Source: Gemmatimonadales bacterium (GTDB lineage Bacteria; Gemmatimonadota; Glassbacteria; GWA2-58-10). Taken from it: 64,000 bases of DNA. The stretch covers positions 6,679 to 70,678 of the forward strand of contig JAJRTS010000003.1 of assembly GCA_024278175.1 (NCBI GenBank). Reading direction: 5' to 3'. Positions 16,922-49,045 of this stretch are shown here, one piece after another. The notes below the pieces were generated by a model, which saw nothing but the letters and a program-made list of their open reading frames with translations, was not told the DNA's origin and did no database searches. Position 1 is the stretch's first letter; each line of letters begins with the position of its first letter. A program made the translations under genes and the position numbers.

Positions 16922-18022
16922 ATGGTGAACCGGGGAAAAATATTGGCCCCGCGGCGTGAGACCGTCACAGTCAGGGCGGGCAGGCTCGCTATCGGTTCCG
17001 GCCATCCGGTGGTGGTCCAGTCGATGACCAACACGGACAGCAGGGACCCGCGGGCCACGTTGCGCCAGATCGGGCAACTGGCGGCCGCCGGTTGCGAGCT
17101 GGTGCGGGTGGCCGTGCCGGACAAGGAGGCAGCCGGCCGCTTGCGGGAGCTGGTGGACAACTCGCCGCTGCCGCTGGTGGCTGATATCCATTTCAATCAC
17201 CGGCTGGCCCTGGCGGCGCTGGAAGCGGGTATCGCCAAGCTGAGGATCAACCCCGGCAACATCGGCGGCGCGGACAAGGTGAAAGAGCTGGCCCGCGAGG
17301 CCTCGGCCTGCGGAGTGCCGATCAGGATCGGGGTCAACTCCGGCTCGTTGGAAAAAGAGCTGCTGGAACGCCACGGCGGCCCCACTGCCGTGGCGCTGGC
17401 GGCCAGCGCCCTGGGCCATTGTAAGCTGCTGGAGGACGGGGGGTTCGGGGAGATAGTGGTCTCGATCAAGGCCAGCGATGTGCCTACCACGGTGCGGGCC
17501 AACCGCGAGTTCGCCGCGCTGCGAAATTACCCGATTCACCTGGGCGTTACCGAGGCCGGCACTCTGATTCGCGGCACCGTGAACAGCGCGGCGGGGATCG
17601 GGATCATGCTGGCCGAGGGGATCGGCGACACGTTGCGGGTGAGCCTGACCGCCGACCCGGTGGAGGAGATTTCCGTGGCCTGGAAGATCCTGGCCGCTCT
17701 GGGCATCAGACGCAGGGGAGCCGAGGTTATTTCCTGCCCGACCTGCGGCCGCACGGAAGTGAAACTGATCGCTCTGGCCGAGCGGGTCGAGCGGCTTCTT
17801 CGCTCCGTGGAGCAGCCGATGACTATCGCCGTGATGGGCTGCGTGGTCAACGGCCCCGGCGAGGCCAGGGAGGCTGATTTCGGGATCGCCGGGGGCAGGG
17901 GCAACGGCTTGTTGTTCCGTGGCGGCGAGCAGGTGAGCCGGGTTCCGGAGAGTGAGCTGGTGGAGGAACTGCTGCGGCTGATCGAACGGGAAACCGGCGT
18001 GGTTATCCCCCGCCGGGAGTAA
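16922..18022 (+). CDS. ispG: (E)-4-hydroxy-3-methylbut-2-enyl-diphosphate synthase
   Basis: VQSMTNT, PLVADIHF, RINPGNIG, IRIGVNSGSL, HLGVTEAG, CPTCGR...MGCVVNGPGEA. Confidence 0.98.
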   Translation: MVNRGKILAPRRETVTVRAGRLAIGSGHPVVVQSMTNTDSRDPRATLRQIGQLAAAGCELVRVAVPDKEAAGRLRELVDNSPLPLVADIHFNHRLALAALEAGIAKLRINPGNIGGADKVKELAREASACGVPIRIGVNSGSLEKELLERHGGPTAVALAASALGHCKLLEDGGFGEIVVSIKASDVPTTVRANREFAALRNYPIHLGVTEAGTLIRGTVNSAAGIGIMLAEGIGDTLRVSLTADPVEEISVAWKILAALGIRRRGAEVISCPTCGRTEVKLIALAERVERLLRSVEQPMTIAVMGCVVNGPGEAREADFGIAGGRGNGLLFRGGEQVSRVPESELVEELLRLIERETGVVIPRRE

Positions 18023-18128
18023 GAAGCTGCTGTTGTGGGCCGGGTAAATCACTTGCCAGCCGGGCCGTAATTTGTTATCTATACCTTTCCTTGCCACTGA
18101 GAGATATTTTGCTTCTTTTGCCTTTTTT

Positions 18129-18203
18129 GCCCCTGTAGCTCAGTGGATAGAGCATCGGATTCCGGTTCCGGGTGCGCTGGTTCGATTCCAGTCAGGGGTA
18201 CCA
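18129..18203 (+). tRNA. tRNA-Arg (anticodon CCG)
   Basis: Cloverleaf GCCCCTG-TA-GCTC-AGTGGATA-GAGC-A-TCGGA-TT[CCG]GT-TCCGG-GTGC-GCTGG-TTCGATT-CCAGT-CAGGGGT-A-CCA, with encoded CCA. Confidence 0.96.
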
Positions 18204-18208
18204 TAAGC

Positions 18209-18257
18209 AAAGCGCCGCGAGGCCTTGATATTAAAGGGTTCGCGGCGCTTTTGTTTT
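18209..18257 (+). terminator. Hairpin with U-tail immediately after tRNA-Arg
   Basis: aaagcgccgcga...tcgcggcgcttt arms enclosing ccttgatattaaagg, followed by a T-rich tract. Confidence 0.7.
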
Positions 18258-21080
18258 GTCTGATATTTATAGCAAAATCGGATCAGACCCAGAAAATCAT
18301 TGATGCTCACGATGAGAACGGATAATTTATAGCAGAGATAATGGGAATCTCTTGATGCAAGCTGAAAAAAAATGAAAGTTTTAGCTCCGAATCGATAAAG
18401 AAAGCCGTCTCCTTTAATCTGAGAAAAATCGAGCATGATCAAGTATAGTTCTTTCCGGCAGTCATGGCTGCAATTAGCAAGTGTGTCAGCAGTGTTTGCA
18501 ATGAGTGGTTTTGTTTTTTCCATGACCGAAGTAGCCATGCGGATGGAGCGCATTACAACATATGACTTCCTGCTTCCGATCTATGTAGTCAAGGTTACGC
18601 TGGTATTCTATATATTAGGGTGTATGTGCTTTATTGCCGTAAAGGCTATTTATAAAATCAGGCCTTTGAACAATGGAATATCACTGGAGCTATTAGTCAT
18701 AGCTACCTTGGTGTTTGTGGTTATCACATATTTCTTCAATGTATCCGGGCATCATAACTACATTAAAGAGGAATATGGAAACTCCGGATCCATTGTGGAT
18801 AATATTATTGTTCAAGCTGCTATAGTGCTATTCAGCATAGTGGTATATTGTGTACTGAGCTTATTAAAAGGCAAGCGAATCATGGCAGGAATATTTGTGC
18901 TGTGGATTTGCTTGGCAATTTTGTTGAGCTATCTGGATACAGAATATTTGGGCGGTGGTTTAGGAAAAGCGTATGAATCGACATCAAAGGCCCAAATAGG
19001 ACTTCTTTTTTATCTGGTAGCCGTCCATTCCATTGTTTTGATCTGTATCGGAAAATGGATGCTCAATGATTTTGAGTTGGCGGGTTTTCTGACTTATTTG
19101 GTAATAGCTGTCTTTCAGGCTAACCTTCCGATACCGATAATCGTTTTCTGTTACGGCATGCTCGGTATGTGGTTTGTTGTCCGTCAACGAAGGAAAAAAG
19201 TCAAAAAGAACATCCATGTAGTGGTAGGGCTGATTTTTATTATCGGATTGGGACTGACGCATAAATACTTATTCGGCGACGTGTTTCAGTACAGAGTTCT
19301 TTTTGCCGATGCAAGCAACGATTTGGTCGGCAGCACTTGGTGGCTTCAAGCTTTTTTGGCACCAGCGGTGAAATTGTCAGTTTTGTTAATTGTCTTAAAA
19401 ATAGCATTTCCTAAATACAACGGTACGGATTACGGAAAATGTTATTTCAGTGCAAAAGAAATATGCGTACCGGTATTTGCAGCAGTTTTTTTGTTCGCAA
19501 TTTCCTCACAGATTGTTTTTGGAAATAAAGGTTGGTTAGGTTCGCTGACAAGTGTGAGCAATAACTATTTACCGGCTAACACGCCTAATATAATCCTTAT
19601 TACCTGGGATACTGTCCGGCAGGACCATCTCTCAGTTTACGGTTATTCCCGAAAAACCACGCCTAATCTGGAAAAATTTGCTGAAAAAGCTTGCCTTTAC
19701 CGGAATTTTTATGCAGCCACCGGTCTGACCCTTCCAAGCCATGCTTCTGCTTTTACTGGAATGCTTCCTTATATCCACGGCGTTCAAGACCATCGGACCA
19801 AATTCAGGTTATCTTCTCAAAACCAAACTTTAGCGGAAGTCTTGCGGGAAAAAGGATTCGTTACCGCGGCGATCTCCGCTCACCCTTCAATTCACAGTGC
19901 AAATCTGACGGAAGGGTTCGGTTTCGTATTGGATGGAAAAACTAATACAGACCTCTATATGTTAGAAAGTTTAATATTTTGCCCTCAAAACAATCGGTTA
20001 AAAAGTTTGCTTGAAAAACTGCCTTGGTATAAGTCCAACTGGCATTTATTTCCTGCCAATGCGGAACAGGTTACGCGCAAAACTTCCAGTTGGCTGGATA
20101 TGAACAACAGGAAAGCGTTTTTCCTTTTTATTAACTATCTGGATGCACATGCTCCTTACACTCCTGCCGGAAAATATGTCGATTATTACGATAACAAAAC
20201 AATCGATATCAAATACAACGAATATCCGAATGATGTGAAAGAGTCCATTAATAATTATGATGCTGAAATAACTTACCTGGACCATCATCAGGGTCGGCTA
20301 TTGCAAAAACTCAAGCAATTGGGCCTGTACGATAACTCGTTGATTATAATTCAAGGCGACCACGGGGAAGCGTTCGGTGAGCACGATTTTTTCCAGCATG
20401 GGCCTTTTCTGTATAATGAAGTGTTACACGTTCCCATGTTGATTAAATACCCGCGGCAAGACACGGCTGGCATTTGTGACAGACTGGCATCCCACCCCGA
20501 TATTTTCCCTACCGTGCTTGCAACATTGGGGTATGAGATTTCCGATAAGATTCAGGGTAAGTCATTGTATTCCATCGATCCTCATCGGTCGATCATTAAT
20601 GAAGGATATTTGATGGATGAAAATGGCAGATCGAAGGCAAGAAGAAGCTTGATCAAATATCCTTTCAAAATGATGGCGGAACCGGACGGCTCTCTTAAAC
20701 TATACAACTTTGCAGATGATCGTGACGAGTTGAATGATTTGTCTGTCGAAAAAAGAAATATTGCTTTGGAAATGAACGACAGCTTGCGCAAGATACTGAA
20801 TGACATCGATTCTTTGAAAATAACTCCAATAATAGGCGCTTGGAACTTATCGGACCAGGTGGTTGAGCAGTTGAAAGCTCTTGGATATGTAAAATGAAAA
20901 ATAAGTAGAAATAATCCTGCTGTGAAGAAGTTGTTGCACCAACTGCCGATTGTATACTCCCGAAAGCTCAAAGAGGTTTTTCTTATCCGAAAAAGTAATG
21001 CTATCAAAGTGATAAAATCTTATCGAAATTGTCGCCGCAAAAACAAACATTAGCTATACTCCAAATGTATCACCCGTAAA
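18258..21080. mobile_element. AT-rich putative horizontally acquired islet next to tRNA-Arg (no integrase)
   Basis: Abrupt compositional shift: by hand count line 18841 is 23/60 G+C versus 44/60 for line 17101 in ispG. One cargo gene; tRNA-adjacent. Boundaries are approximate. Confidence 0.6.
18435..20897 (+). CDS. Polytopic membrane protein with C-terminal sulfatase-like (alkaline phosphatase superfamily) domain
   Basis: About 10 hydrophobic segments, then PNIILITWDTVRQDHLSVYGY, TLPSHASAFTG, NYLDAHAPY, YDAEITYLD, GDHGEAFGEH, LHVPMLIKYP, and the ending EQLKALGYVK. Confidence 0.85.
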   Translation: MIKYSSFRQSWLQLASVSAVFAMSGFVFSMTEVAMRMERITTYDFLLPIYVVKVTLVFYILGCMCFIAVKAIYKIRPLNNGISLELLVIATLVFVVITYFFNVSGHHNYIKEEYGNSGSIVDNIIVQAAIVLFSIVVYCVLSLLKGKRIMAGIFVLWICLAILLSYLDTEYLGGGLGKAYESTSKAQIGLLFYLVAVHSIVLICIGKWMLNDFELAGFLTYLVIAVFQANLPIPIIVFCYGMLGMWFVVRQRRKKVKKNIHVVVGLIFIIGLGLTHKYLFGDVFQYRVLFADASNDLVGSTWWLQAFLAPAVKLSVLLIVLKIAFPKYNGTDYGKCYFSAKEICVPVFAAVFLFAISSQIVFGNKGWLGSLTSVSNNYLPANTPNIILITWDTVRQDHLSVYGYSRKTTPNLEKFAEKACLYRNFYAATGLTLPSHASAFTGMLPYIHGVQDHRTKFRLSSQNQTLAEVLREKGFVTAAISAHPSIHSANLTEGFGFVLDGKTNTDLYMLESLIFCPQNNRLKSLLEKLPWYKSNWHLFPANAEQVTRKTSSWLDMNNRKAFFLFINYLDAHAPYTPAGKYVDYYDNKTIDIKYNEYPNDVKESINNYDAEITYLDHHQGRLLQKLKQLGLYDNSLIIIQGDHGEAFGEHDFFQHGPFLYNEVLHVPMLIKYPRQDTAGICDRLASHPDIFPTVLATLGYEISDKIQGKSLYSIDPHRSIINEGYLMDENGRSKARRSLIKYPFKMMAEPDGSLKLYNFADDRDELNDLSVEKRNIALEMNDSLRKILNDIDSLKITPIIGAWNLSDQVVEQLKALGYVK

Positions 21081-21082
21081 CC

Positions 21083-21143
21083 TTGTGTCAACTGGTCGGG
21101 TTTATTATCATAACCGCAACTTATGAGAATGATACTCTATCTC
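21083..21143 (+). promoter_or_regulatory. Sigma70-like promoter followed by a Fur/Zur-family box
   Basis: TTGTGT(21083)-17 nt-TATCAT(21106). gagaatgatactctatctc (21125-21143) matches 14/19 of the Fur consensus GATAATGATAATCATTATC. Lies directly upstream of a metal ABC operon. Confidence 0.55.
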
Positions 21144-21161
21144 TTACCGGGGAGCCTTTCA

Positions 21162-22100
21162 ATGTCCTCTTTCAAAATTTTTTTTGTACTTTGTGCAGTA
21201 TTGCTAGCCGCCTGTTCCGGTGGTGACCGAGGCAACGAAACGGCGCGTCCGGACGATTCCAGACCGGTAATTGTCGCCACCACCACTATCGTGGCCGATA
21301 TTGCCCGTAACGTGGCCGGCGGGCGCATGAGAGTGGTCAGTATCATGAAGACCGGCGAGGACCCTCATATCTACGACCCCCGTCCCGGCGACGCGCGCCT
21401 GATAGCCGGGGCCGATGTGGTCCTGACCAACGGCCTGCATCTGGAGGGTACGCTGCAGGGGATCGTGCGCAACAACCTCAGAGAGGGGGCCGTTTTCCGG
21501 GAACTTGCCGAAGACGAGCGGATCGAAGTGATCGAAAGCGTACAATACCAGGGAGCTCCCGATCCGCACTGCTGGTTCAGCATCCCCTACGTTAAGGTCT
21601 ATGCCCGGAACGCCACCGAGGCCCTGTGCGATGCCGACCCGCCCAACGCCGATTATTATCGCGCCAACGCCCGCAGCTACCTGGCCCGGCTCGATTCGCT
21701 GGACTCCTATGCCCGCGGAGTTTTCGCTATGATTCCGGAAAAGAACCGGATTCTGGTCACGGCCCACGATGCGTTCCACTATTTCGGGATCGAGTACGGG
21801 ATCGAGGTGATGACCGTGATCGGGATCAGCACGGACAGCGAGCCACGGCCCCTGGACCTGGAGAACCTTGTCAACCTGATCAAGCGCAACAACGTGCCGG
21901 CGGTGTTTATCGAAACCAGCGTCAGCGCCAGTCTTAACAACCTGGTGCGCAAGGTGAGCGAGAAAACCGGCGCGCTAATCGGCGGAACGCTTTACAGCGA
22001 CAGCCTGGGAGAGCCTGATGGCGATTCCGGCACATTCCTCGGCATGTTCCGTCACAACGTGGACACTATCGCCGGCGCCCTGGGCAAGGGAGGGGCGTGA
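21162..22100 (+). CDS. Cluster A-I metal (Mn/Zn/Fe) ABC transporter substrate-binding lipoprotein, TroA-like
   Basis: Lipobox LLAAC; ligand motifs GEDPHIY, PDPHCW, AHDAFHYF, YSDSLG; GGGAG RBS before ATG 21162. Confidence 0.93.
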   Translation: MSSFKIFFVLCAVLLAACSGGDRGNETARPDDSRPVIVATTTIVADIARNVAGGRMRVVSIMKTGEDPHIYDPRPGDARLIAGADVVLTNGLHLEGTLQGIVRNNLREGAVFRELAEDERIEVIESVQYQGAPDPHCWFSIPYVKVYARNATEALCDADPPNADYYRANARSYLARLDSLDSYARGVFAMIPEKNRILVTAHDAFHYFGIEYGIEVMTVIGISTDSEPRPLDLENLVNLIKRNNVPAVFIETSVSASLNNLVRKVSEKTGALIGGTLYSDSLGEPDGDSGTFLGMFRHNVDTIAGALGKGGA

Positions 22101-29295: not shown

Positions 29296-30807
29296 ATGCG
29301 GAATCCCAAGTCATTGCCGGTCCCGGCTGCTCTGGCGACAGCACTGTTGCTGACCGCGGGAGCGGCGCTCGCCCAAAGCGACACCACGGGTTACAGGGAT
29401 ATGATGGCGGATGTTTTCTCGCCGGTCTGCCTTAACTGCCACGACAGCGAACTCAGTAATCGCAGCGGCGCGCCTGCCGAAATTAATTTCAATACTTACA
29501 CATTGGCCGCTGCCAACGCCGGCGCCGGCAATACCCGTGTCCAGGCCGGTACCATGCCGCCCGCCTCTTTCGGGTCTCTCACCGCTTCCCAGAAAAGCAC
29601 CTTCCAGGCCTGGGTGGACCAAGGCACGCCGCTCGGCACGATTGTGGACTACCAGGACCTGCGCTCACAGCTTTTCCAGCCCGTGTGCATGAACTGCCAC
29701 AGCAGCACGGCCAGCAACCGTAAGGGCGCACCCGCATCTGTGAATTTTGATACTTTCGCCGCGGCAAGAACAAGCGCGGTCAAGGGCAACAACCGGGTCC
29801 AGGCCGGCACCATGCCACCCTCCTCTTTCGGCTCGCTTACGGCCGCCCAGCAGAGCGCTTTTCAGGACTGGGTCTGGCTCGATACCCCCAGCGGCGAGCG
29901 AGTCACCTATCAAACCCTCTCCGATTCCCTGCTGAAGGATTCCTGCGTGCTCTGCCACGACAGTAACAAGAGCGCAAGCTCCCGTGGGGGCGCACCTGCC
30001 AGTGTAAACTTCGACAGCTATACAGCCACCGTGGCCAGCGCCAATATCGCCAACAACCGAATCCAGAGTGCGACCTCATCTCCCCACGGGCCGCAGAGCC
30101 AGAGCATCAAGGACTTGTTCTTCAACTGGATCTACGCGGGCATACCGGAAAGCGACACGCCTGCCTGGCCTGTCTGCGACCTGGACGGCAGCGGGGTGGT
30201 GGAAACCGCCGATGTTATCTGGCTGATCCTGTTCATCCGGGACAACTCATTTGACGAGACCTACGACCTCAACAACGACGGCAGGCTCAGTATCGGCGAT
30301 GTGGTGACGCTGGTGGTAGCTATCCGCAACGGCGCGTGCAGCGATGGCGGCTCGTTACTGGCCTCGGCCGACGCGCACAACACGCCGCGGTGGCTCGCCA
30401 CTCTCCCGGACCAGGACAAGGCCGATGTGGAGAACACCCAAGCCATGCTGAGCCTGAGCCCCGAGGAAGAAGCCGCGTTCCGTCAGGCTCTCCACGGTGG
30501 TACCGGCCGGGCCGCCCTGCCCCGCGCTTTCAGCCTGGGCCAGAACAGACCCAACCCGTTCAATCCGGTCACCACTATCAGTTTCACTGTACCCGAGGGG
30601 GCCGGGGCCAGAGTGAGGATCGAGGTATTCGACATCTCCGGCAGGCTGGTTGCCGTGCTGGCCGACCAGTTCAAGGCAGCCGGCAGCTACTCGGTGTTCT
30701 GGGACGGCTCGGACGGTAACGGAGCGGACGTGTCCAGCGGAATCTATTTCTACCGGATGCGGGCCGGGGACTACCTCCAGACACGCAAGATGGTGCTGCT
30801 CAAGTAG
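29296..30807 (+). CDS. Secreted tri-heme c-type cytochrome with dockerin-like module and C-terminal T9SS type A/FlgD-Ig sorting domain
   Basis: AGGAG RBS and signal peptide (AALA-Q). CLNCH, CMNCH and CVLCH at aa 45, 131 and 217. Paired Ca-loops DLDGSGVVETAD / DLNNDGRLSIGD. C-terminus FSLGQNRPNPFNPVTTISF...SSGIYFYRM...TRKMVLLK. Confidence 0.85.
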   Translation: MRNPKSLPVPAALATALLLTAGAALAQSDTTGYRDMMADVFSPVCLNCHDSELSNRSGAPAEINFNTYTLAAANAGAGNTRVQAGTMPPASFGSLTASQKSTFQAWVDQGTPLGTIVDYQDLRSQLFQPVCMNCHSSTASNRKGAPASVNFDTFAAARTSAVKGNNRVQAGTMPPSSFGSLTAAQQSAFQDWVWLDTPSGERVTYQTLSDSLLKDSCVLCHDSNKSASSRGGAPASVNFDSYTATVASANIANNRIQSATSSPHGPQSQSIKDLFFNWIYAGIPESDTPAWPVCDLDGSGVVETADVIWLILFIRDNSFDETYDLNNDGRLSIGDVVTLVVAIRNGACSDGGSLLASADAHNTPRWLATLPDQDKADVENTQAMLSLSPEEEAAFRQALHGGTGRAALPRAFSLGQNRPNPFNPVTTISFTVPEGAGARVRIEVFDISGRLVAVLADQFKAAGSYSVFWDGSDGNGADVSSGIYFYRMRAGDYLQTRKMVLLK

Positions 30808-34070: not shown

Positions 34071-34294
34071 TTAACGTCTCCTTCCAAAGGTAAGCGCACG
34101 GGCGCGGCAACAATTCATCGCAGATGACAGCTAATTTTCTTCTAATAATTGTGCCGGGAGGCCAGGCGCGCATTGTACCGTATCGCCATACCACCGTTGC
34201 TTGTGCCCTCCGGTATTATATATTAAATTTTTCTCAAGCGCAAAGCTTAACACTCCCTTGCTTCCGACACGCCTTCCCGTGCGAGGACATACCG

Positions 34295-36646
34295 GTGCGT
34301 TACTTTTACAGAATTCTTTATTCAGGCCTGCTGTTGCTGCTGCCGTTGGTCTGTTCCTGCCAGTTGGATGGCGGTCCCGGCGGACTGCAGAGCGAAGCCT
34401 ACAGCAGACTTAACTCTCTCTATAAACTCCATCCCCGCCTGCTTATTCCCGCCGGCGAGGACAGTCTGCTTCGCGAGCGGCTGGGAAGCTCCCACCGCAT
34501 GCTCTGGAAGCGCTACCTTCAGGACCTGCCCGGCAAGCTTGAGCGTGGGCGTTCATTCACGGCTGACCCGGACCGTGGCGAGGGTAACCTGGCCGCAGAT
34601 CTGGCGTTCGCCTGGCGCGCCACCGGCGAGGACAGTTTACTCGACGCCGCGCGCAGTTACCTGCTGAAACTGGCGAGCCTGGAAACCTGGGACCCGGATT
34701 ACGATCTTCTGCAGGGCCATCTGCTGCTGGGAACAGCGCTTGCCTACGACTGGCTCTACCATGAACTCAATCGCTCCCAGCGCGCGCTTGTGACCGCCAA
34801 ACTGGGTGACGAGGCCGAGGCGCAGTACCGGCAGATCACCCGCAACAGGGCCTGGTATCGCACCCAGTACCTGCAGAACCACGCCCATGTAAACTATACC
34901 GGGATGGCTTACGCCGCCGTGGCGCTCTACGGCGAGGACGCCAGGGCGCAGAAATGGCTGGCGGCCTGTGAGGAGTTTTTCCCCCGCGTGTTCGAGTTAA
35001 GCCCATCCGACGGCGGCTCCATAGAGGGACTGAGCTACGGCAACTATGCCATGGAGTTCTGCCTGCTCTATGCCGAGCTGGCCCGCGCTGCGCTGGGCAA
35101 GGACTACTATTCCAGTAAATGGATCGAAAATTATCCGCGCTACGTTCTGCACAGCACGCTTCCCGTTCAGACAGAGAAAGAGTGGGCGATGACGTTCGGC
35201 GACAGCCCTCGCCACGGCAACTCTCACGGGCCGGAGCAGATGCTGTATCTGATCGCCTCCCGGCTCAACGACCCCAGCGCGCAGTGGCTGGCCAATCATC
35301 TGATCGCCCTGAACGATTCGGGCCTGGCCAGCGCATCCTGGTGGGCGCTGCTCTGGTATGACCCGAACGTGGGAGAATCCTCGCCGGCCTCGTTCGCACC
35401 CCTGCACCGTTTTAACGAAATCGGGCAGGTGGTGACGCGCACCGCCTGGCAGGATACGGCAGCCACCATGATCGCCCTTAAGAGCGGCGCGTTCATGGGC
35501 GATTCCAACGCGGAGGGCGCCGTGTTCGATCTGGGAGCGGCCCACGGGCACCCGGATGCAGGCAGCTTTCAGCTTTACTCTCATGGGCGTTTTCTGCTGA
35601 TCGATCCAGGTTACACCTCTTTCAAGAGTACGGCCAACCACAACACCCTGCTGGTGAAGGGCCGTGGCCAACTGGGCGAGAACGAACCCTGGTTCGCCGC
35701 CGCGGAGGCGATTCAATACGGCCACCGGCCGCGGGTGCTGGAAACGTTGTCCACCACTGCTTACGACTACATCCTTGCCGATATCGCCCCCGCGTACCAT
35801 CCCGCGCTCAATCTGAGCAAGGCGCTGCGCCACCTGCTGTTCGTCAAACCGGACATTCTGCTGATAGTCGATGAGGCGATCCTGGGAGACACGGGTGTGC
35901 TCTACAGTTGGCCCGCCGATACGCTGGAACTCTCCGGCCTGCTGCGCCTGGAGGACGGTTACGTGGTTGGCAGCCGCGGCAGCGCCGGTGCCACATTCGC
36001 CGGCGTGGGGGGCGACTATACGGTCGGGGTAAGCTATCTCGACAACTTCCCCGGTAGCGGCTCGTACAGCCTGCTGATCAACGGGGAGAAAATATCCGCT
36101 TGGAAAAACCATGCCGAGGCAACCGACACGCACCTGAAACTGATAGAGTCCGTGCGGCTTGATCCCGGCTGCAAAATCAGCGTGGCAGCGGACCCGATGG
36201 GCCGGGAAGCCAGGATTGTCAAAATCACCGCCCACAGCAGCCGTGTCCGCCAGCCGCGCAGCGTAACCTGGCTGGCTCATTTCGACCCGTCGGTTAAGCT
36301 GGAGCGCAAGTACACCTGGATCGAAGCGGACGCCGGCGAGTTGCTAGTCGATATCCACCCCCTGGCTCCCGAACATCGCTCCCACGACTGGGGCATCCAC
36401 ACGGTCAAGGGTGGGCGACAGATCAAGCAGACCATGCGCCTGGAGATAACACCGGCGTTCACCGACTCGGCCACCACGATGATGAACCTGCTCTTTATCC
36501 GCCCCAAGGGCGGCAGGCCGCTGCAGTGGCTGCGCGCGGGCATTACCGGCAGGACCGCCACGGTGCGCTACTACCGCGACCAGCGTCTGCATACGATCAC
36601 CTTGAATCTCGACACCAGGGAAATCGGTATAGAGCCGCAGGATTGA
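34295..36646 (+). CDS. Heparinase II/III-like polysaccharide lyase lipoprotein (DUF4962 N-terminus) with an inserted beta-sandwich domain
   Basis: GAGGA RBS with GTG start; lipobox-like VCSC; HPRLL, ALAYDWLY, QNHAH, DGGSIEGLSYGNY, HGHPDAGSF, IDPGY...STANHNTLLV. Confidence 0.8.
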   Translation: MRYFYRILYSGLLLLLPLVCSCQLDGGPGGLQSEAYSRLNSLYKLHPRLLIPAGEDSLLRERLGSSHRMLWKRYLQDLPGKLERGRSFTADPDRGEGNLAADLAFAWRATGEDSLLDAARSYLLKLASLETWDPDYDLLQGHLLLGTALAYDWLYHELNRSQRALVTAKLGDEAEAQYRQITRNRAWYRTQYLQNHAHVNYTGMAYAAVALYGEDARAQKWLAACEEFFPRVFELSPSDGGSIEGLSYGNYAMEFCLLYAELARAALGKDYYSSKWIENYPRYVLHSTLPVQTEKEWAMTFGDSPRHGNSHGPEQMLYLIASRLNDPSAQWLANHLIALNDSGLASASWWALLWYDPNVGESSPASFAPLHRFNEIGQVVTRTAWQDTAATMIALKSGAFMGDSNAEGAVFDLGAAHGHPDAGSFQLYSHGRFLLIDPGYTSFKSTANHNTLLVKGRGQLGENEPWFAAAEAIQYGHRPRVLETLSTTAYDYILADIAPAYHPALNLSKALRHLLFVKPDILLIVDEAILGDTGVLYSWPADTLELSGLLRLEDGYVVGSRGSAGATFAGVGGDYTVGVSYLDNFPGSGSYSLLINGEKISAWKNHAEATDTHLKLIESVRLDPGCKISVAADPMGREARIVKITAHSSRVRQPRSVTWLAHFDPSVKLERKYTWIEADAGELLVDIHPLAPEHRSHDWGIHTVKGGRQIKQTMRLEITPAFTDSATTMMNLLFIRPKGGRPLQWLRAGITGRTATVRYYRDQRLHTITLNLDTREIGIEPQD

Positions 36647-36678
36647 CCCCGCGCAACCTCAAACACCGGATGGCGGCG

Positions 36679-38604
36679 ATGGAATTATTCGTACCCGGCA
36701 GGATCTGTATGTTCGGCGAGCACTCGGACTGGGCGGGCGGCTACCGCAGGATCAATTCCGAAATCGAAAAGGGTTACACGATAATCGCCGGGACCAATCA
36801 GGGGATCTACGCCCGCATACGCCCCCACCCCGGCAAGCTGGTACTGACATCGTGCCTGCCCGACGGGCGCAGGATCGGGCCGTACGAGATACCGATGACC
36901 CGCGAGGCGCTGCTGGCCGAGGCCGAAAAAGGCGGGTTTTTCAGCTACATCGCGGGTGTGGCGTTCCAGGTGATGACGTTCTATCCGGTCAAGGGACTGG
37001 AGATAGACAACTACCGCACGGACATGCCGGTCAAGAAGGGACTGAGCAGTTCGGCGGCGGTTTGCGTGCTCACCGCCAGGGCGTTTAACAAAATCTACGA
37101 TCTGCGGATGACTGTCCGCGGCGAGATGGAGTTCGCCTACATGGGCGAAGTGATCACTCCCAGCCGCTGCGGCAGGATGGACCAGGGCTGCGCCTACGGC
37201 AACCGCCCCACGATGATGACGTTCGACCGTGACCTGCTGACCGTGGACGAGCTGAACGTGCCGGAAACGCTCCACATGGTGATTGTCGACCTCCGGGCGG
37301 AAAAAGATACCAAGGAAATTCTGGCCAGCCTGAACCACTCCTACCCGTTCGCCGAGAACGAGCTGGACCAGGGCGTGCAGCATTACCTGGGCAAGGCCAA
37401 CAAGATGCTGGTCCACGAGGCGGTCAAAGCGCTAAAAGCGGGCGATGCACAAGCTCTCGGCGCACTGATGACGCGGGCGCAGAAACTGTTCGACCAGTAC
37501 CTGACCCCGGCCTGCCCGGAACAACTGACAGCCCCGATCCTTCACGAGGCCCTCCGGTTCGGGGATATCAGCAAATTGATCTGGGGCGGCAAGGGTGTTG
37601 GCAGCCAGGGTGATGGGGCCGCGCAGTTCGTGGCCAGAGGCCCTGAGGAGCAGGCCGAAATAATCAGGCTGTTCGAGGAAGTAAAGGCAATGAAGGCGCT
37701 CAAGCTCGATATTCCGGCCACGCGAAGGGCGCGCAAGGTGCTGATCCCGGCCGCGGGTTTCGGTACGCGGCTGTTCCCGGCAACCAAGGCTATCCGCAAG
37801 GAGTTGTTTCCGGTTATCGGCCGCGACGGGGTGGCCCGCCCGGCGATTCTGATTCTGGTGGAAGAGGCGTTCGACTCTGGGGCGAGCTCGGTTTGTATCG
37901 TTGTGCGGAAAGAGGACGTGGAGATGTTCGAGAGCTTTTTCAACGCTCCGCTGGAGATTGGTCATTTCAACAAGCTCAGCCGCCAATCGAAAGCATACCA
38001 GAACCGGCTGATGGAACTTGGCTCAAAAACAGCCATTATCGCTCAGGACCACCAGGAAGGCCTGGGCCACGCGGTCCACGTGGCCGGCGACTGGGTAAAC
38101 GGCGAGCCGTTTCTGCTGATGCTCGGCGATCACATCTACCGCTCCAACTCCGATCTCCCCTGCGCCCGCCAGTTGCTGGACGTCTACGAAAAATACCAGA
38201 AGAACGTAGTGGGCCTTCGCGTGACAAAAGAAAGCGAGATCGGCCGCTTCGGTACGGTGGCGGGCCTGTGGGAGCCGGGCGATGAGCGTCTGCTCAATGT
38301 GACCGGGATCGCCGAGAAACCCTCGGTGGACTACGCCCGCGCCAACCTGAGAGTGGACAACCTGGCCGACGACGAGTACCTGACCATATTCGGCCTCTAC
38401 GTTCTCAGCCCATCGGTGCTGAACATCCTCAGGGAACATATCACCGACAACCTGCGCCGCAAGGGCGAGTTCGACCTGACCGCCGCGCTGGACGTGATGC
38501 GGGCCGAGGAAGGTTTCCTGGGCTATGTGGTCGATGGCGACCGGTTCGACATCGGCGTGCCCCAGGCCTATCTGGAGAGCCTGTTGGAATATCCGGCCGG
38601 CTGA
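36679..38604 (+). CDS. Bifunctional GHMP sugar kinase (galactokinase-like) / GalU-like sugar-1-phosphate nucleotidyltransferase
   Basis: N-terminal half: PGRICMFGEHSDW, PVKKGLSSSAA, CGRMDQ, GGKGVGSQGDG. C-terminal half: IPAAGFGTRLFPATKAIRKELFP, EGLGHAV, MLGDHIY, IAEKP, RFDIG. Confidence 0.88.
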   Translation: MELFVPGRICMFGEHSDWAGGYRRINSEIEKGYTIIAGTNQGIYARIRPHPGKLVLTSCLPDGRRIGPYEIPMTREALLAEAEKGGFFSYIAGVAFQVMTFYPVKGLEIDNYRTDMPVKKGLSSSAAVCVLTARAFNKIYDLRMTVRGEMEFAYMGEVITPSRCGRMDQGCAYGNRPTMMTFDRDLLTVDELNVPETLHMVIVDLRAEKDTKEILASLNHSYPFAENELDQGVQHYLGKANKMLVHEAVKALKAGDAQALGALMTRAQKLFDQYLTPACPEQLTAPILHEALRFGDISKLIWGGKGVGSQGDGAAQFVARGPEEQAEIIRLFEEVKAMKALKLDIPATRRARKVLIPAAGFGTRLFPATKAIRKELFPVIGRDGVARPAILILVEEAFDSGASSVCIVVRKEDVEMFESFFNAPLEIGHFNKLSRQSKAYQNRLMELGSKTAIIAQDHQEGLGHAVHVAGDWVNGEPFLLMLGDHIYRSNSDLPCARQLLDVYEKYQKNVVGLRVTKESEIGRFGTVAGLWEPGDERLLNVTGIAEKPSVDYARANLRVDNLADDEYLTIFGLYVLSPSVLNILREHITDNLRRKGEFDLTAALDVMRAEEGFLGYVVDGDRFDIGVPQAYLESLLEYPAG

Positions 38605-46512: not shown

Positions 46513-48966
46513 ATGAGGCATGCTTTATCAACGTTAACCATTTGTCTGCTCGTTTTCGGCTCGGCTTCCGCCGAATACCAGCTCGTGGACCATCCCCGGA
46601 TGTTTATCACCAAAGAGACCCTGCCCCTGCTGGCCGAAAGGGCTTACGGGACCGGGACGCTGGCCGGCGACTACGCCCTGATGAAACAGGAAGCCGACTA
46701 CTTTGTCGGGCGCGGCGTGCTGAAAAAGCCGACCAGCCAGTGGCACCCGCCCTACGAACTCGTCAGCGCAGGGATCTGTTATCTCGTCGAGCGGGAGCGG
46801 GGTAACGCAAACGCGGCGGCCTATGCCCAGGCGGTAATAGATTACTGGAACCTGGATGACGGAAAGATTCTCTCCAACTTGGGCAACAAGCATTTCGGCT
46901 ACTATGCTTTGATATTTGATTGGATTTACGATGCGATGACTCAGGCGGAAAGAGAAAAGTTCGGCTTATACCTTGGAAGCTGGCTATACTGGTATACAAA
47001 CAAGCCGGAGATCACGCTGCGCTACGGCGACTGGCTTTACAATCAGACATGGGGGCCGGCCCATTTAAATGTTGGCAACACGCGCGACGGGATTACGCCC
47101 AAGCTGTTTGTCGCTTTGGCGCTCTCCGGCGCAGGCACCTCCAACGAAGATGCCAGCAAGCAGTTCCTCGACTCGTTCGACAGCCGGATCCCGGCCGAGT
47201 GTATTCCCCGGTTCGACATCATGGGCGGAGTGTGGTCCGAGAGCTACGGCCACGGCAGCTACGGGCCGACAAGGGTAATCCCCTGGGCGTTCGAGGCTTG
47301 GCGCACCGCCACGGGCCAGAACTGGTTCGAGCTTGGGGAACCGAACACCTACCTGAAGGAACTCAACAAATGGGCCGTGCATCTTAACGTGCCGTTCTCC
47401 AACCGCACCGCCTATATCGACGACAACCAGGGTGCGCCGTTTTTCAGCAGTTGGCTGCCCACAGCCCCTATTCTGGCAGCGCGTTACAACGATCCCGTGG
47501 CCGCCTGGTGCGCACAGCAATACGACCGCGGAACCTGGTCCACTCGCTGGCGCGTACTTCCCTGGCAGCGCCTGCTCAGCTTTGATCCGGATATCGAGCC
47601 TCAGTCTCCGGGGCAGGCGCTCTGGCCGGTTGCCAGGCTGTTTCGCGGCGCGGGGCACGTCTACATGCGCGGCCGCTGGGACGACCCCGACGCAACCTGG
47701 GCCTTTTTTGGCGCGGGACCTTGGCTGGCGGGGCACTCTCGCGACGACGAGGGGCATTTCATGATCGCCCGCAAAGGCTGGCTGGTCAGCCGTGCCGGCG
47801 GGATGGGGCACAACGACTGGGATTACTACTCCGGTGGATCGCTGGCGTTTAATATCGTCACGGTTTTCGATCCCGACGAGCAATACAGCCGGCTCTCGCC
47901 CAGTGAATCGGCCCTTGCCGACGGCGGGACCAAAAACGAGCGGGACGGCGGCACGATCCGTCACGTGTACGGCGCTAACGGCGGCAACTACGGCGCTGTT
48001 CTCGCCAGGGGGAAGATTACCGCGTTCAAGCACGACTGGCGCTACACTTACGCCGCGGCCGACATGACCAAAGGTTATCGCTCCATAAAAATCAAAGAGA
48101 TTACACGCCAGTTTCTCTACCTTCGCGGCGAGCAGGAATTCTTCATCATCTTCGATCGGGTGGACGCCAGGAACGAAAAATTTCCCAAAACATGGTTTCT
48201 GCACATCCCCACCGAACCCTCGGTCAGCGGCAGCGAAACCGAACTCACCGCCGACCACGTATACTCCTACAGCGATGGAAACTACAGCACCTGGCTCAGC
48301 GACCCGGCGGGTATCGATGATGTTCTTTCCAGCGGCAGATCCAGGGCCCACCTGACCACCCTGCTGCCGCGGGAATTCACGATCACCAAGCGCGGTGGCG
48401 CTGGATACCAGTTCTGGGGACATCCTCACGAACCGACCGCCCAGTACAACCATGCCAGCAAAAGAGCAGACGATCCCCCGGTTATCAACTGGCGGCTGGA
48501 AGTGGAGGCGGGCCAGCAAGTAAACCGCGATTATTTTCTGCACGTGCTCGAGGTGACGGACGAGGACGTAACCACCCCCTCTGAAGTCACCCTGTTAGAC
48601 CAGGGATCGGCCGTGACAGGCGTTCAAATCGTGCCCTCATCGGGGGGCGAACCGATTGAGGTCTATTTTTCGAGCGAGGGAGCGATGAGCGGCTCGATTA
48701 AATTCGGTAGCGCAGAGCCCGAGGCGCTACCCTCGGCAGTGGACACGACCCTTGAAATCGGCAGCAGGGGCGATATCGACGGCGACGGCCGGCTGTCAAT
48801 CGCCGACGCCGTGAACATGCTGCTTTTCGGCAGGCGCGACCCCGGGCGCAGTATCAGCGATTTCAACGGGGACGGTCAGTTTACGCTGGCGGACATAACA
48901 GACCTGCTCGGCTATCTTATCATGCGGGCGGATTATCCCACGCTGGCGGGAACGGGCAAAAACTAA
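46513..48966 (+). CDS. Secreted heparinase II/III-like lyase-fold protein with C-terminal dockerin-like module
   Basis: Signal peptide (ASA-E), DHPRMFIT, IFDWIYD, GGVWSESYGHGSY, VYMRGRWD, GHSRDDEGHF, FFIIFDRV, TWFLH. Tail GDIDGDGRLSIAD...DFNGDGQFTLAD. Confidence 0.78.
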   Translation: MRHALSTLTICLLVFGSASAEYQLVDHPRMFITKETLPLLAERAYGTGTLAGDYALMKQEADYFVGRGVLKKPTSQWHPPYELVSAGICYLVERERGNANAAAYAQAVIDYWNLDDGKILSNLGNKHFGYYALIFDWIYDAMTQAEREKFGLYLGSWLYWYTNKPEITLRYGDWLYNQTWGPAHLNVGNTRDGITPKLFVALALSGAGTSNEDASKQFLDSFDSRIPAECIPRFDIMGGVWSESYGHGSYGPTRVIPWAFEAWRTATGQNWFELGEPNTYLKELNKWAVHLNVPFSNRTAYIDDNQGAPFFSSWLPTAPILAARYNDPVAAWCAQQYDRGTWSTRWRVLPWQRLLSFDPDIEPQSPGQALWPVARLFRGAGHVYMRGRWDDPDATWAFFGAGPWLAGHSRDDEGHFMIARKGWLVSRAGGMGHNDWDYYSGGSLAFNIVTVFDPDEQYSRLSPSESALADGGTKNERDGGTIRHVYGANGGNYGAVLARGKITAFKHDWRYTYAAADMTKGYRSIKIKEITRQFLYLRGEQEFFIIFDRVDARNEKFPKTWFLHIPTEPSVSGSETELTADHVYSYSDGNYSTWLSDPAGIDDVLSSGRSRAHLTTLLPREFTITKRGGAGYQFWGHPHEPTAQYNHASKRADDPPVINWRLEVEAGQQVNRDYFLHVLEVTDEDVTTPSEVTLLDQGSAVTGVQIVPSSGGEPIEVYFSSEGAMSGSIKFGSAEPEALPSAVDTTLEIGSRGDIDGDGRLSIADAVNMLLFGRRDPGRSISDFNGDGQFTLADITDLLGYLIMRADYPTLAGTGKN

Positions 48967-49006: not shown

Positions 49007-49045
49007 AAAGCCCGACAGGCGGCATCGAGCCGTCGGTCGGGCTTT
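49007..49045. terminator. Terminator-like hairpin between convergent genes
   Basis: aaagcccgac-aggcggc-atcga-gccgtcg-gtcgggcttt. Confidence 0.65.

Follow-up and report, generated by a model that had tools for sequence, protein, structure and literature searches.

Described dockerin-cohesin systems and the lyase locus

The closest described counterparts of the system reported here are the clostridial cellulosomes, the cellulosome-like system predicted for Candidatus Stygibacter, the dockerin and cohesin proteins of anaerobic methanotrophic (ANME) archaea and, for the enzyme itself, heparinase II of Pedobacter heparinus. We analyzed a 64,000-nucleotide stretch of DNA (hereafter, the window) from a Gemmatimonadales bacterium assigned to the Glassbacteria (assembly GCA_024278175.1, contig JAJRTS010000003.1), in which the gene of a heparinase II-like lyase (hereafter, the lyase) ends in a dockerin-like module. 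We put at about one in two the probability that this lyase docks, through a lineage-specific dockerin class (hereafter, class B), on a cohesin scaffold anchored by type IX secretion system (T9SS) sorting domains.

Compared to the clostridial type I pairs (Clostridium thermocellum Xyn10B/CipA, 1OHZ and 2CCL; C. cellulolyticum, 2VN5), the lyase module has the same duplicated 12-residue calcium loop with its helix, the class B profile aligns with the clostridial type I dockerins over the full length, and the predicted fold superposes at template modelling (TM) scores of 0.65–0.79. As in clostridial cellulosomes, the modules stand at the ends of enzymes, and multi-cohesin scaffoldins and adaptors are encoded in the source genome. 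Unlike the clostridial dockerins, the lyase module falls below the Pfam cut-off, has a fixed 29-residue spacing between its loops, and carries I-A/L-A at loop positions 10/11, which we take to be S-T in the clostridial modules. The host also differs, being a diderm in which the scaffoldins are anchored by T9SS sorting domains instead of surface-layer homology (SLH) domains or sortase. The cargo consists of lyases, glycosidases, and cytochromes and not of cellulases, and its docking is a prediction.

Candidatus Stygibacter (Cloacimonadota) is an uncultured diderm of the Fibrobacterota-Chlorobiota-Bacteroidota (FCB) group for which a cellulosome-like system was proposed in silico. According to the passages of Williams et al. 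(2021; PMC8542988) on this system, its signal-peptide enzymes have C-terminal dockerins, and its scaffoldin combines tandem cohesins with a T9SS-type domain, conserved at the C-terminus, by which it would attach to the cell surface. Our system resembles it as an in-silico system of a diderm with C-terminal dockerins and a T9SS-type anchored scaffoldin. It differs in phylum, in the presence of two dockerin classes with different cargo, in a dockerin-hairpin-tail cassette, in its cytochrome cargo, and in lyases that take the place of the chitinase, amylase, and peptidases given as cargo in those passages. Dockerin-cohesin systems with T9SS-type anchored scaffoldins had already been proposed in silico, for Candidatus Stygibacter (PMC8542988), and what is new here is the separable, lineage-restricted class B dockerin, its bias toward lyase and cytochrome cargo, and its cassette with the T9SS tail.

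The ANME archaea, as presented in the relevant passages of Chadwick et al. (2022; PMC9012536), are likewise non-cellulolytic organisms with many dockerin/cohesin proteins, among them scaffoldin-like proteins with up to 5 cohesins. Their repertoire is discussed there in the context of extracellular electron transfer, and substrate-binding and S-layer proteins are named as common cargo. Unlike the present organism, they have no outer membrane and no T9SS, and no dockerin-bearing cytochrome appears in the passages of that paper on cargo. A literature search found no paper joining Glassbacteria and dockerin and none joining Latescibacteria, dockerin, and cohesin.

Profile and fold evidence for a C-terminal dockerin

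A preliminary description of this DNA had placed the lyase reading frame and three dockerin-type loops in the window; the frame proved exact (Table 1), and the loops are present, letter for letter, in the proteins to which they had been assigned. A six-frame motif scan of the window returned these three loops in total, DIDGDGRLSIAD (D-I-D-G-D-G-R-L-S-I-A-D) and DFNGDGQFTLAD (D-F-N-G-D-G-Q-F-T-L-A-D) in the lyase and DLNNDGRLSIGD in a multihaem cytochrome encoded upstream (hereafter, the cytochrome). The loop starts of the lyase are 29 residues apart, helices are predicted by AlphaFold2 (AF2) at residues 763–775 and 792–806, and the calcium-ligand positions 1/3/5/12 are filled in both loops (D/D/D/D and D/N/D/D), a pattern consistent with calcium binding.

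A profile built from 22 class B modules, including that of the cytochrome (alignment A2), matched solved dockerins, i.e., 6kg9 of C. acetobutylicum (E = 8.8e-7), 2ccl of C. thermocellum Xyn10B (3.5e-6), and 1ohz (4.3e-5), with further matches to the CelS and CelD dockerins. These matches span profile positions 1–50/52, whereas EF-hand proteins align at one loop only. The AF2 model of the 53-aa lyase module has a predicted local distance difference test (pLDDT) score of 89, and a Foldseek search with it placed dockerins from cohesin-dockerin complexes at all of ranks 1–25 (query TM 0.54–0.79). The best match was 2vn5_B (TM 0.79/0.76; root-mean-square deviation 2.0 Å; E = 0.13); E-values are weak (≥0.13) given the small size of the module, and EF-hand proteins stayed at TM ≤0.32. 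Because the profile and fold tests are independent and both agree, we interpret the module as a true but divergent type I-like dockerin, despite a Pfam score under the cut-off.

Two dockerin classes, their cargo, and their distribution

The source genome (G000; 4.18 Mb, 113 contigs, 97% complete) contains 42 matches to the dockerin model PF00404 at E ≤10, of which 21 are above the cut-off. Using our own hidden Markov models (HMMs), trained on 18 class A and 17 class B modules, we divided the dockerins of this genome into two clearly distinct classes, A (21 modules) and B (23 modules), so that three class A and six class B members lie beyond the training sets. Class A, characterized by the motif IFDLL, scores 46–77 bits on its own HMM and ≤45 bits on that of class B; class B scores 44–81 bits on its own HMM and ≤31 bits on that of class A. 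The lyase module, which was in the training set, reaches 69 bits on the class B HMM. We assigned no class to matches below 40 bits, among which are FG-GAP repeats, a lone loop on C13, and two weak dockerin-like stretches on contig C17. Within class B, the loop starts are exactly 29 residues apart in all 22 aligned modules, and positions 10/11 vary widely among the paralogues (alignment A2). Clustered genome-wide, the inventory thus comprises 44 classed dockerins in two classes, alongside 15 cohesin modules (see below).

Based on Pfam annotation, the class B cargo (20 carriers and the two in the window) includes five PL14-like proteins (one above the Pfam cut-off, four at 20–24 bits versus 27), three heparinase II/III-like proteins (the lyase included), three beta-helix proteins (one with CBM96), one GHL15, one GH42/DUF4832, and one BNR/sortilin protein, three multihaem cytochromes (that of the window, C83_6026, and one on C41), one M10 peptidase, one fn3 protein, and three proteins without a catalytic match. 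A Pfam scan of the 18 non-adaptor class A carriers identified peptidases (M6, two S8, and M14), an FG-GAP/ASPIC protein, DUF362, a lactonase, FGE-sulfatase-type, Ig/cadherin, and one beta-helix protein, and purple-acid-phosphatase-N/fn3, SH3, and CarboxypepD_reg/lectin-like proteins. Five class A carriers have nothing besides the dockerin or a T9SS tail, and three cohesin adaptors are also class A. Going by these annotations, the carriers of class B are mostly lyases, glycosidases, and multihaem cytochromes, and those of class A are peptidases, cohesin adaptors, and adhesin-like proteins.

The position of the class B modules within their proteins varies (n = 23): 12 are C-terminal in tail-less proteins, 7 precede a T9SS tail by 156–162 residues, 3 are N-terminal, and 1 is a fragment. 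Such varied placement is expected of an autonomous binding module.

A dockerin-tail cassette was found in seven source-genome proteins (C83_6026, C65_1, C113, C41, the cytochrome of the window [C40; window 30160-30560], C107_147425, and C98). Its order is a Cys just before loop 1, the dockerin, GxC past helix 2, xLLA[SG], a helical hairpin, and the T9SS sorting domain; a disulfide staple between the Cys and GxC is possible. The hairpin, of about 45 residues, follows the pattern L-[ST]-x-E-[EQ]...L-[ST]-x-E-Q-x-A-x-F and is absent from T9SS-tailed proteins without a dockerin. The xLLA[GS] motif was considered as a sorting signal of its own and rejected: of the 12 class B proteins without a tail, only about 3 end with it, and in the tail-bearing ones it marks the beginning of the linker.

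To place these classes in a wider context, we compared 13 genomes of the organism's class, all of one Glassbacteria-like family, with 138 others in a phylum sample of 151 genomes, in which the class B scan scored up to 44 candidates per genome. Class B (E ≤1e-10) was present in 13/13 family genomes and 0/138 others. Cohesins (E ≤1e-5) were present in 11/13 family genomes versus 6/138 others, and in all 13 family genomes at E ≤1e-3. Judged from these scans, class B is a lineage-specific dockerin class. In one relative (G002), two open reading frames (ORFs) combine a class B dockerin with a cohesin and a T9SS tail. At two loci of the same genome (C130:13500-19500 and C4:17500-22000), small adaptors composed of a cohesin and a class A dockerin adjoin roughly 400-aa proteins in which CarboxypepD_reg/SpaA-like repeats are combined with a class B dockerin at the N-terminus. 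These fusions and neighbors put class B inside the cohesin network, which falls short of proving binding.

The lyase itself has 495 homologues, the closest of which are named as proteins of Candidatus Glassbacteria or of Gemmatimonadota metagenome-assembled genomes. Among the 39 closest cluster representatives, 22 are tail-less with a dockerin, 14 end in a T9SS tail, and 3 are partial or different; most homologues are more distant (about 720 aa) and consist of the core only. In the 13 family genomes, dockerin-bearing lyase frames are tail-less in nine cases (6 genomes) and tail-bearing in five (4 genomes), three more lyase frames end at contig ends, and at least 11 copies are core-only. The source genome, too, has a paralogue of this core-only kind, with one part at the end of C107 and the other at the start of C49. 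The dockerin of the lyase is thus retained with or without the tail. The xLLA[GS] motif is conserved in tail-less and tail-bearing orthologues alike, and in the latter it leads to the helical hairpin and then to the sorting domain. The dockerin-bearing lyase is tandem-duplicated in two relatives (G012 and G007), and in a third (G006) it adjoins a more distant copy (29% identity).

Cohesins and T9SS-anchored scaffoldins

The preliminary description had named a lack of cohesins in the genome as grounds for refuting its reading, and cohesins are in fact present. In the source genome, the cohesin model PF00963 gave 10 matches (5 above the cut-off), and a cohesin HMM iterated on the genome placed 15 modules in 7 proteins. 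A scaffoldin cluster (C105:237-15590) comprises four co-directional genes with 1, 1, 6, and 2 cohesins, three of which end in T9SS sorting domains. ORF1 (1478 aa) joins a single cohesin to Ig/cadherin repeats and a class A dockerin. ORF2 (1633 aa) has one cohesin and a sorting domain split by one in-frame TAA (C105:9843-10013), which may reflect a nonsense mutation, a pseudogene, or a fault of the assembly. ORF3 (1131 aa) combines six cohesins with a T9SS sorting domain (TIGR04183: 34.1 bits, above the cut-off of 23), and ORF4 (623 aa) combines two cohesins with a sorting domain.

C109 (36138-37379) and C111 each encode a small adaptor in which two cohesins are combined with a class A dockerin, and the cohesin HMM also places cohesin module(s) on C37. 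The C109 adaptor lies at a contig end; in G009, a genome of the same genus, the orthologous adaptor is the immediate neighbor of the ORF1 orthologue, on the contig of the remaining cluster (C101). Because of this arrangement, the C109 adaptor probably belongs to the C105 cluster, just upstream. The source genome therefore encodes a cellulosome-like gene set, i.e., cohesins, a tandem-cohesin scaffoldin, a surface anchor, and dockerin-bearing enzymes, together with an SprA-like translocon protein (SprA_N) and two secretins.

Docking of the lyase and alternative roles of the module

Given these features, cohesin docking of the lyase is plausible. The class B dockerin would have spread by domain shuffling across about 23 exported proteins of the genome. 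Loaded with calcium, it would plug the lyase non-covalently into one of the cohesins, and the lyase would thereby be held at the cell surface on the T9SS-anchored scaffold, beside other class B cargo. Complex prediction was neutral on binding: the lyase dockerin paired with one cohesin each of C111, C109, and ORF3 (cohesin 1) gave a score of 0.01, and the fold of the partner was uncertain.

Several points weigh against docking on an anchored scaffold. PF00404 gives the lyase module 15.7 bits when the isolated C-terminus is searched and 12.2 bits in the genome scan, below the gathering threshold of 22.9. The 15 cohesins are mutually only 10–35% identical and form 4–5 loose groups, so that no single cohesin type is indicated; an attempt to find the partner cohesin by clustering failed, as the loose groups give no handle on specificity. 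The restriction of class B and of multiple cohesins to one family of kin genomes amounts to a single evolutionary event and is weak evidence. The GldM_1st model has no match in the source genome, nor does PorP_SprF, a model that matched in no genome, so that its blank carries little weight; the T9SS inference consequently rests on SprA and the sorting domains. A tail-less lyase exported by the Sec pathway has no known way across the outer membrane in this genome. A conserved utilisation locus around the lyase was also considered and dropped, because the neighbors are not kept at the loci of eight relatives. Finally, apart from two weaker cases on C17, the hairpin is confined to T9SS-tailed proteins that carry a class B module, and a cassette fixed in 7/23 class B proteins means that the module could serve secretion or anchoring and not docking.

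The last of these points leads to the view that class B modules are calcium-binding structural or secretion-linked spacers without a cohesin partner, which lend stability to proteins on export or aid in displaying T9SS cargo close to the membrane; copies without a tail would be truncation products that keep the module. The cassette, the sub-threshold Pfam score, and the diversity of positions 10/11 among paralogues would all fit such spacers, as would the alternation of tail-bearing and tail-less lyase orthologues, the latter of which stop just past LLAG. Most copies, however, are away from a sorting domain (the 3 N-terminal and 12 tail-less C-terminal modules), the profile and fold resemble cohesin-binding dockerins and not generic EF-hands, the class is confined to a lineage with expanded cohesins, and class B is fused to or adjoins cohesin proteins in G002. 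We regard spacers without a partner as somewhat unlikely.

Whether or not the module docks, the lyase lacks a T9SS tail, as had been noted earlier. The protein ends 16 residues past the Pfam-matched stretch and 11 residues past the 53-aa module, no sorting domain (nor any other family) was found by Pfam in the whole protein, and no decayed tail was detected in the 370 nucleotides between the lyase stop and thyX (tblastn with 7 tails; best E = 0.16). The N-terminus has a basic n-region, a hydrophobic core, and ASA ahead of a conserved mature start, (A/E)YxLxxHPR in the family consensus, and Sec export of the lyase via this putative signal peptide is probable. The export problem is not peculiar to the lyase, as it extends to 12 tail-less class B proteins and to 16 class A proteins with a dockerin at the extreme C-terminus, 3 of which are cohesin adaptors. 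Piggy-back export of the tail-less lyase, which the preliminary description had offered as one route, is pure speculation.

The other route offered there was that the lyase stays in the periplasm, where it would degrade imported oligosaccharides with a dockerin that is vestigial or bound to a periplasmic partner. A signal peptide without a T9SS tail is what such an enzyme would have, and the lyase gene is preceded, on its own strand, by genes for TonB, a TonB-dependent receptor, and a GFO/IDH/MocA oxidoreductase; most homologues, and one paralogue in the source genome, are also core-only without a surface module. This neighborhood is not conserved, however: in a tblastn search of the loci of eight relatives, several of them shortened by contig ends, only the lyase was matched, and not the TonB-dependent receptor, TonB, the oxidoreductase, ThyX, the CitMHS transporter, or the esterase of the window. 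The dockerin is intact with all calcium ligands and is kept in 22 tail-less cluster representatives, which argues against a vestige, and close orthologues bear a T9SS tail and so would act outside the cell. A periplasmic lyase is decidedly unlikely on this balance.

Relation to the cytochrome

The preliminary description had singled out a near-identical dockerin loop shared by the lyase and the cytochrome and had inferred from it that both proteins dock on the same scaffold. The cytochrome matches FlgD_ig (33.1 bits) and, under the cut-off, Dockerin_1 (15.8 bits), and its sorting domain is of T9SS type A (TIGR04183: 31.2 bits versus the cut-off of 23). The two proteins carry the common DGRLSIxD in different repeats, the lyase in repeat 1 and the cytochrome in repeat 2. 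When the 53-aa modules are aligned in register, their identity is 30%, which ties the cytochrome for 16th–18th among the 22 other class B modules. In any register, the best loop identity is 8/12, a level attained by 60 of the 231 pairs among 22 class B modules, and 10 other modules match the lyase loops at 8 or 9 of 12. The exact form DGRLSI.D is limited to the lyase and the cytochrome among 44 loops of the source genome (relaxed form: 10/44), and it recurs in 6/34 lyase orthologues of other genomes. Because in-register identity, loop-pair counts, and recurrence in orthologues are all ordinary for class B, the likeness reflects the class consensus and no private relationship, and the special tie was not upheld.

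The residues at positions 10/11 are as first reported (lyase, IA/LA; cytochrome, TA/IG), and the two modules thus differ at the positions that the preliminary description had named as helping to set cohesin specificity in clostridial dockerins. A shared specificity, with lyase and cytochrome together on one scaffold and lyases coupled to redox modules, would be a narrower case of the docking proposed here. What stands of it is that both modules are class B and that the class B cargo, rich in lyases, mixes lyases and glycosidases with three multihaem cytochromes, from which the class A cargo differs. Against it, there is no special pairing of the two modules, the cytochrome module is part of the full Cys-flanked cassette with a T9SS tail of its own whereas the lyase has neither Cys residues nor a tail, and the genes are 16 kb apart and do not share an operon. 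Joint docking of these two proteins is therefore unlikely.

A broader reading would join these elements into two orthogonal plug-and-socket systems on T9SS-anchored scaffoldins with class-sorted cargo and cohesin-borne export. Class A would then display peptidases and adhesins, and class B would gather lyases, glycosidases, and multihaem cytochromes in one surface complex that links the degradation of anionic polysaccharides with extracellular electron transfer; cargo without a tail, such as the lyase, would bind a cohesin of a tail-bearing partner and ride along through the T9SS. We see only a slim chance that all of this holds together.

The catalytic core and its relation to heparinase II

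The lyase fold reported earlier is borne out by sequence and structure comparisons. Pfam gave 0 families at E ≤1 for the whole 817-aa protein, and the Hepar_II_III_C model was without a match. Among sequences of the Protein Data Bank, phmmer matched heparinase II (2fuq/3e80) at E = 6e-15 over residues 405–707, i.e., the C-terminal half only, and the NCBIfam HepB model NF045571 reached 82 bits versus an equivalog cut-off of 600, so that a family-level score is not attained. The AF2 model, built on an alignment of 92 homologues (A1), has a pLDDT of 91 and a predicted TM score of 0.88 and contains the toroid and antiparallel beta-sandwich of the heparinase II type. Its best Foldseek matches are heparinase II structures (3e7j_A: E = 1.4e-26, TM 0.59/0.64; 2fuq_A: E = 2.8e-26), followed by dermatan-sulfate epimerase and then by PL15, exoHep, PL17, PL35-type, PL40, and PL33 lyases. 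As phmmer, the NCBIfam score, and the AF2/Foldseek comparison all point to heparinase II, the core is best read as a lyase-fold enzyme and a distant relative of polysaccharide lyase family 21 (PL21).

Heparinase II of P. heparinus (HepB, PL21; 2FUQ/3E7J) is thus the top match in both sequence and fold, although the identity is only 18–19% and heparinase II has no dockerin. H408 of the lyase, invariant in 92/92 aligned homologues, pairs with a His of heparinase II that we take to be the catalytic His406. Arg410 occupies the column of heparinase II His408, presumably a Zn ligand. H184, H247, and Y250 are invariant among the 92 homologues and are candidates for the alpha-domain His/Tyr. The suggestion of anionic polysaccharides as substrates in the preliminary description has this distant similarity to heparinase II as its sole basis and is not supported.

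Table 1 Features of the lyase gene and of the cytochrome gene, with positions in the window.
Feature	Position	Strand	Evidence
Whole gene: heparinase II-like lyase, 817 aa, signal peptide and C-terminal class B dockerin	46513..48966	+	ORF listing, homologues, AF2
Probable Sec signal peptide, aa 1-20 (...GSASA|EY)	46513..46572	+	Reading of sequence
Catalytic core, aa ~21-742: predicted alpha/alpha toroid and beta-sandwich lyase fold, nearest heparinase II (PL21)	46573..48738	+	phmmer, Foldseek, AF2
Class B dockerin module, aa 754-806: two 12-residue calcium loops, each with a helix	48772..48930	+	Regular expression, alignment A2, AF2
Lyase loop 1, DIDGDGRLSIAD	48772-48807	+	
Lyase loop 2, DFNGDGQFTLAD	48859-48894	+	
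Disordered C-terminal end with motif YPTLAG, without T9SS tail	48931..48963	+	pLDDT <50 for aa 807-817
G+C-rich inverted repeat between convergent lyase and thyX, 44 nucleotides past lyase stop	49009..49042	.	Reading of sequence
Cytochrome: 503 aa with three CxxCH motifs, a class B dockerin (30178-30336), a helical hairpin, and a T9SS type A sorting domain	29296..30807	+	
Cytochrome loop DLNNDGRLSIGD, repeat 2 of its dockerin	30265-30300	+	

Other features of the window

The inverted repeat between the lyase and thyX is terminator-like in a consensus scan on the minus strand only (49031-49009), and terminator-like sites are not enriched in the region (5 versus 3.4 ± 2.0 in shuffles). A second heparinase II/III-like protein (34124-36646; DUF4962 and Hepar_II_III_C, 840 aa) is encoded 10 kb upstream of the lyase and has no dockerin, T9SS tail, or obvious signal peptide. 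A 692-aa ORF (36526-38604) has a GHMP-kinase N-terminal domain and a nucleotidyl-transferase domain, which suggests a sugar-1-phosphate kinase/nucleotidyltransferase fusion. Positions 18001-22000 have a low G+C content (0.42–0.49 versus about 0.60 elsewhere) and may represent recently acquired DNA. Encoded here are a ZnuA-type metal-binding protein (21123..22100) and an 820-aa protein (18435..20897) with a sulfatase-type domain that begins only at residue 384.

Implications for the Glassbacteria-like lineage

If class B binds cohesins, these genomes would encode a Gram-negative, cellulosome-style display of enzymes built on the type IX secretion pathway, in an uncultured lineage. The cargo would then be sorted by dockerin class, and the target would be non-cellulosic, probably acidic, polysaccharides. 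Such a system would also pose a question of secretion, as a way across the outer membrane would be needed by the 16 class A proteins with a dockerin at their end and by the 12 class B proteins without a tail. The lyase family, with 495 homologues and no matching Pfam model, represents an unclassified relative of PL21.

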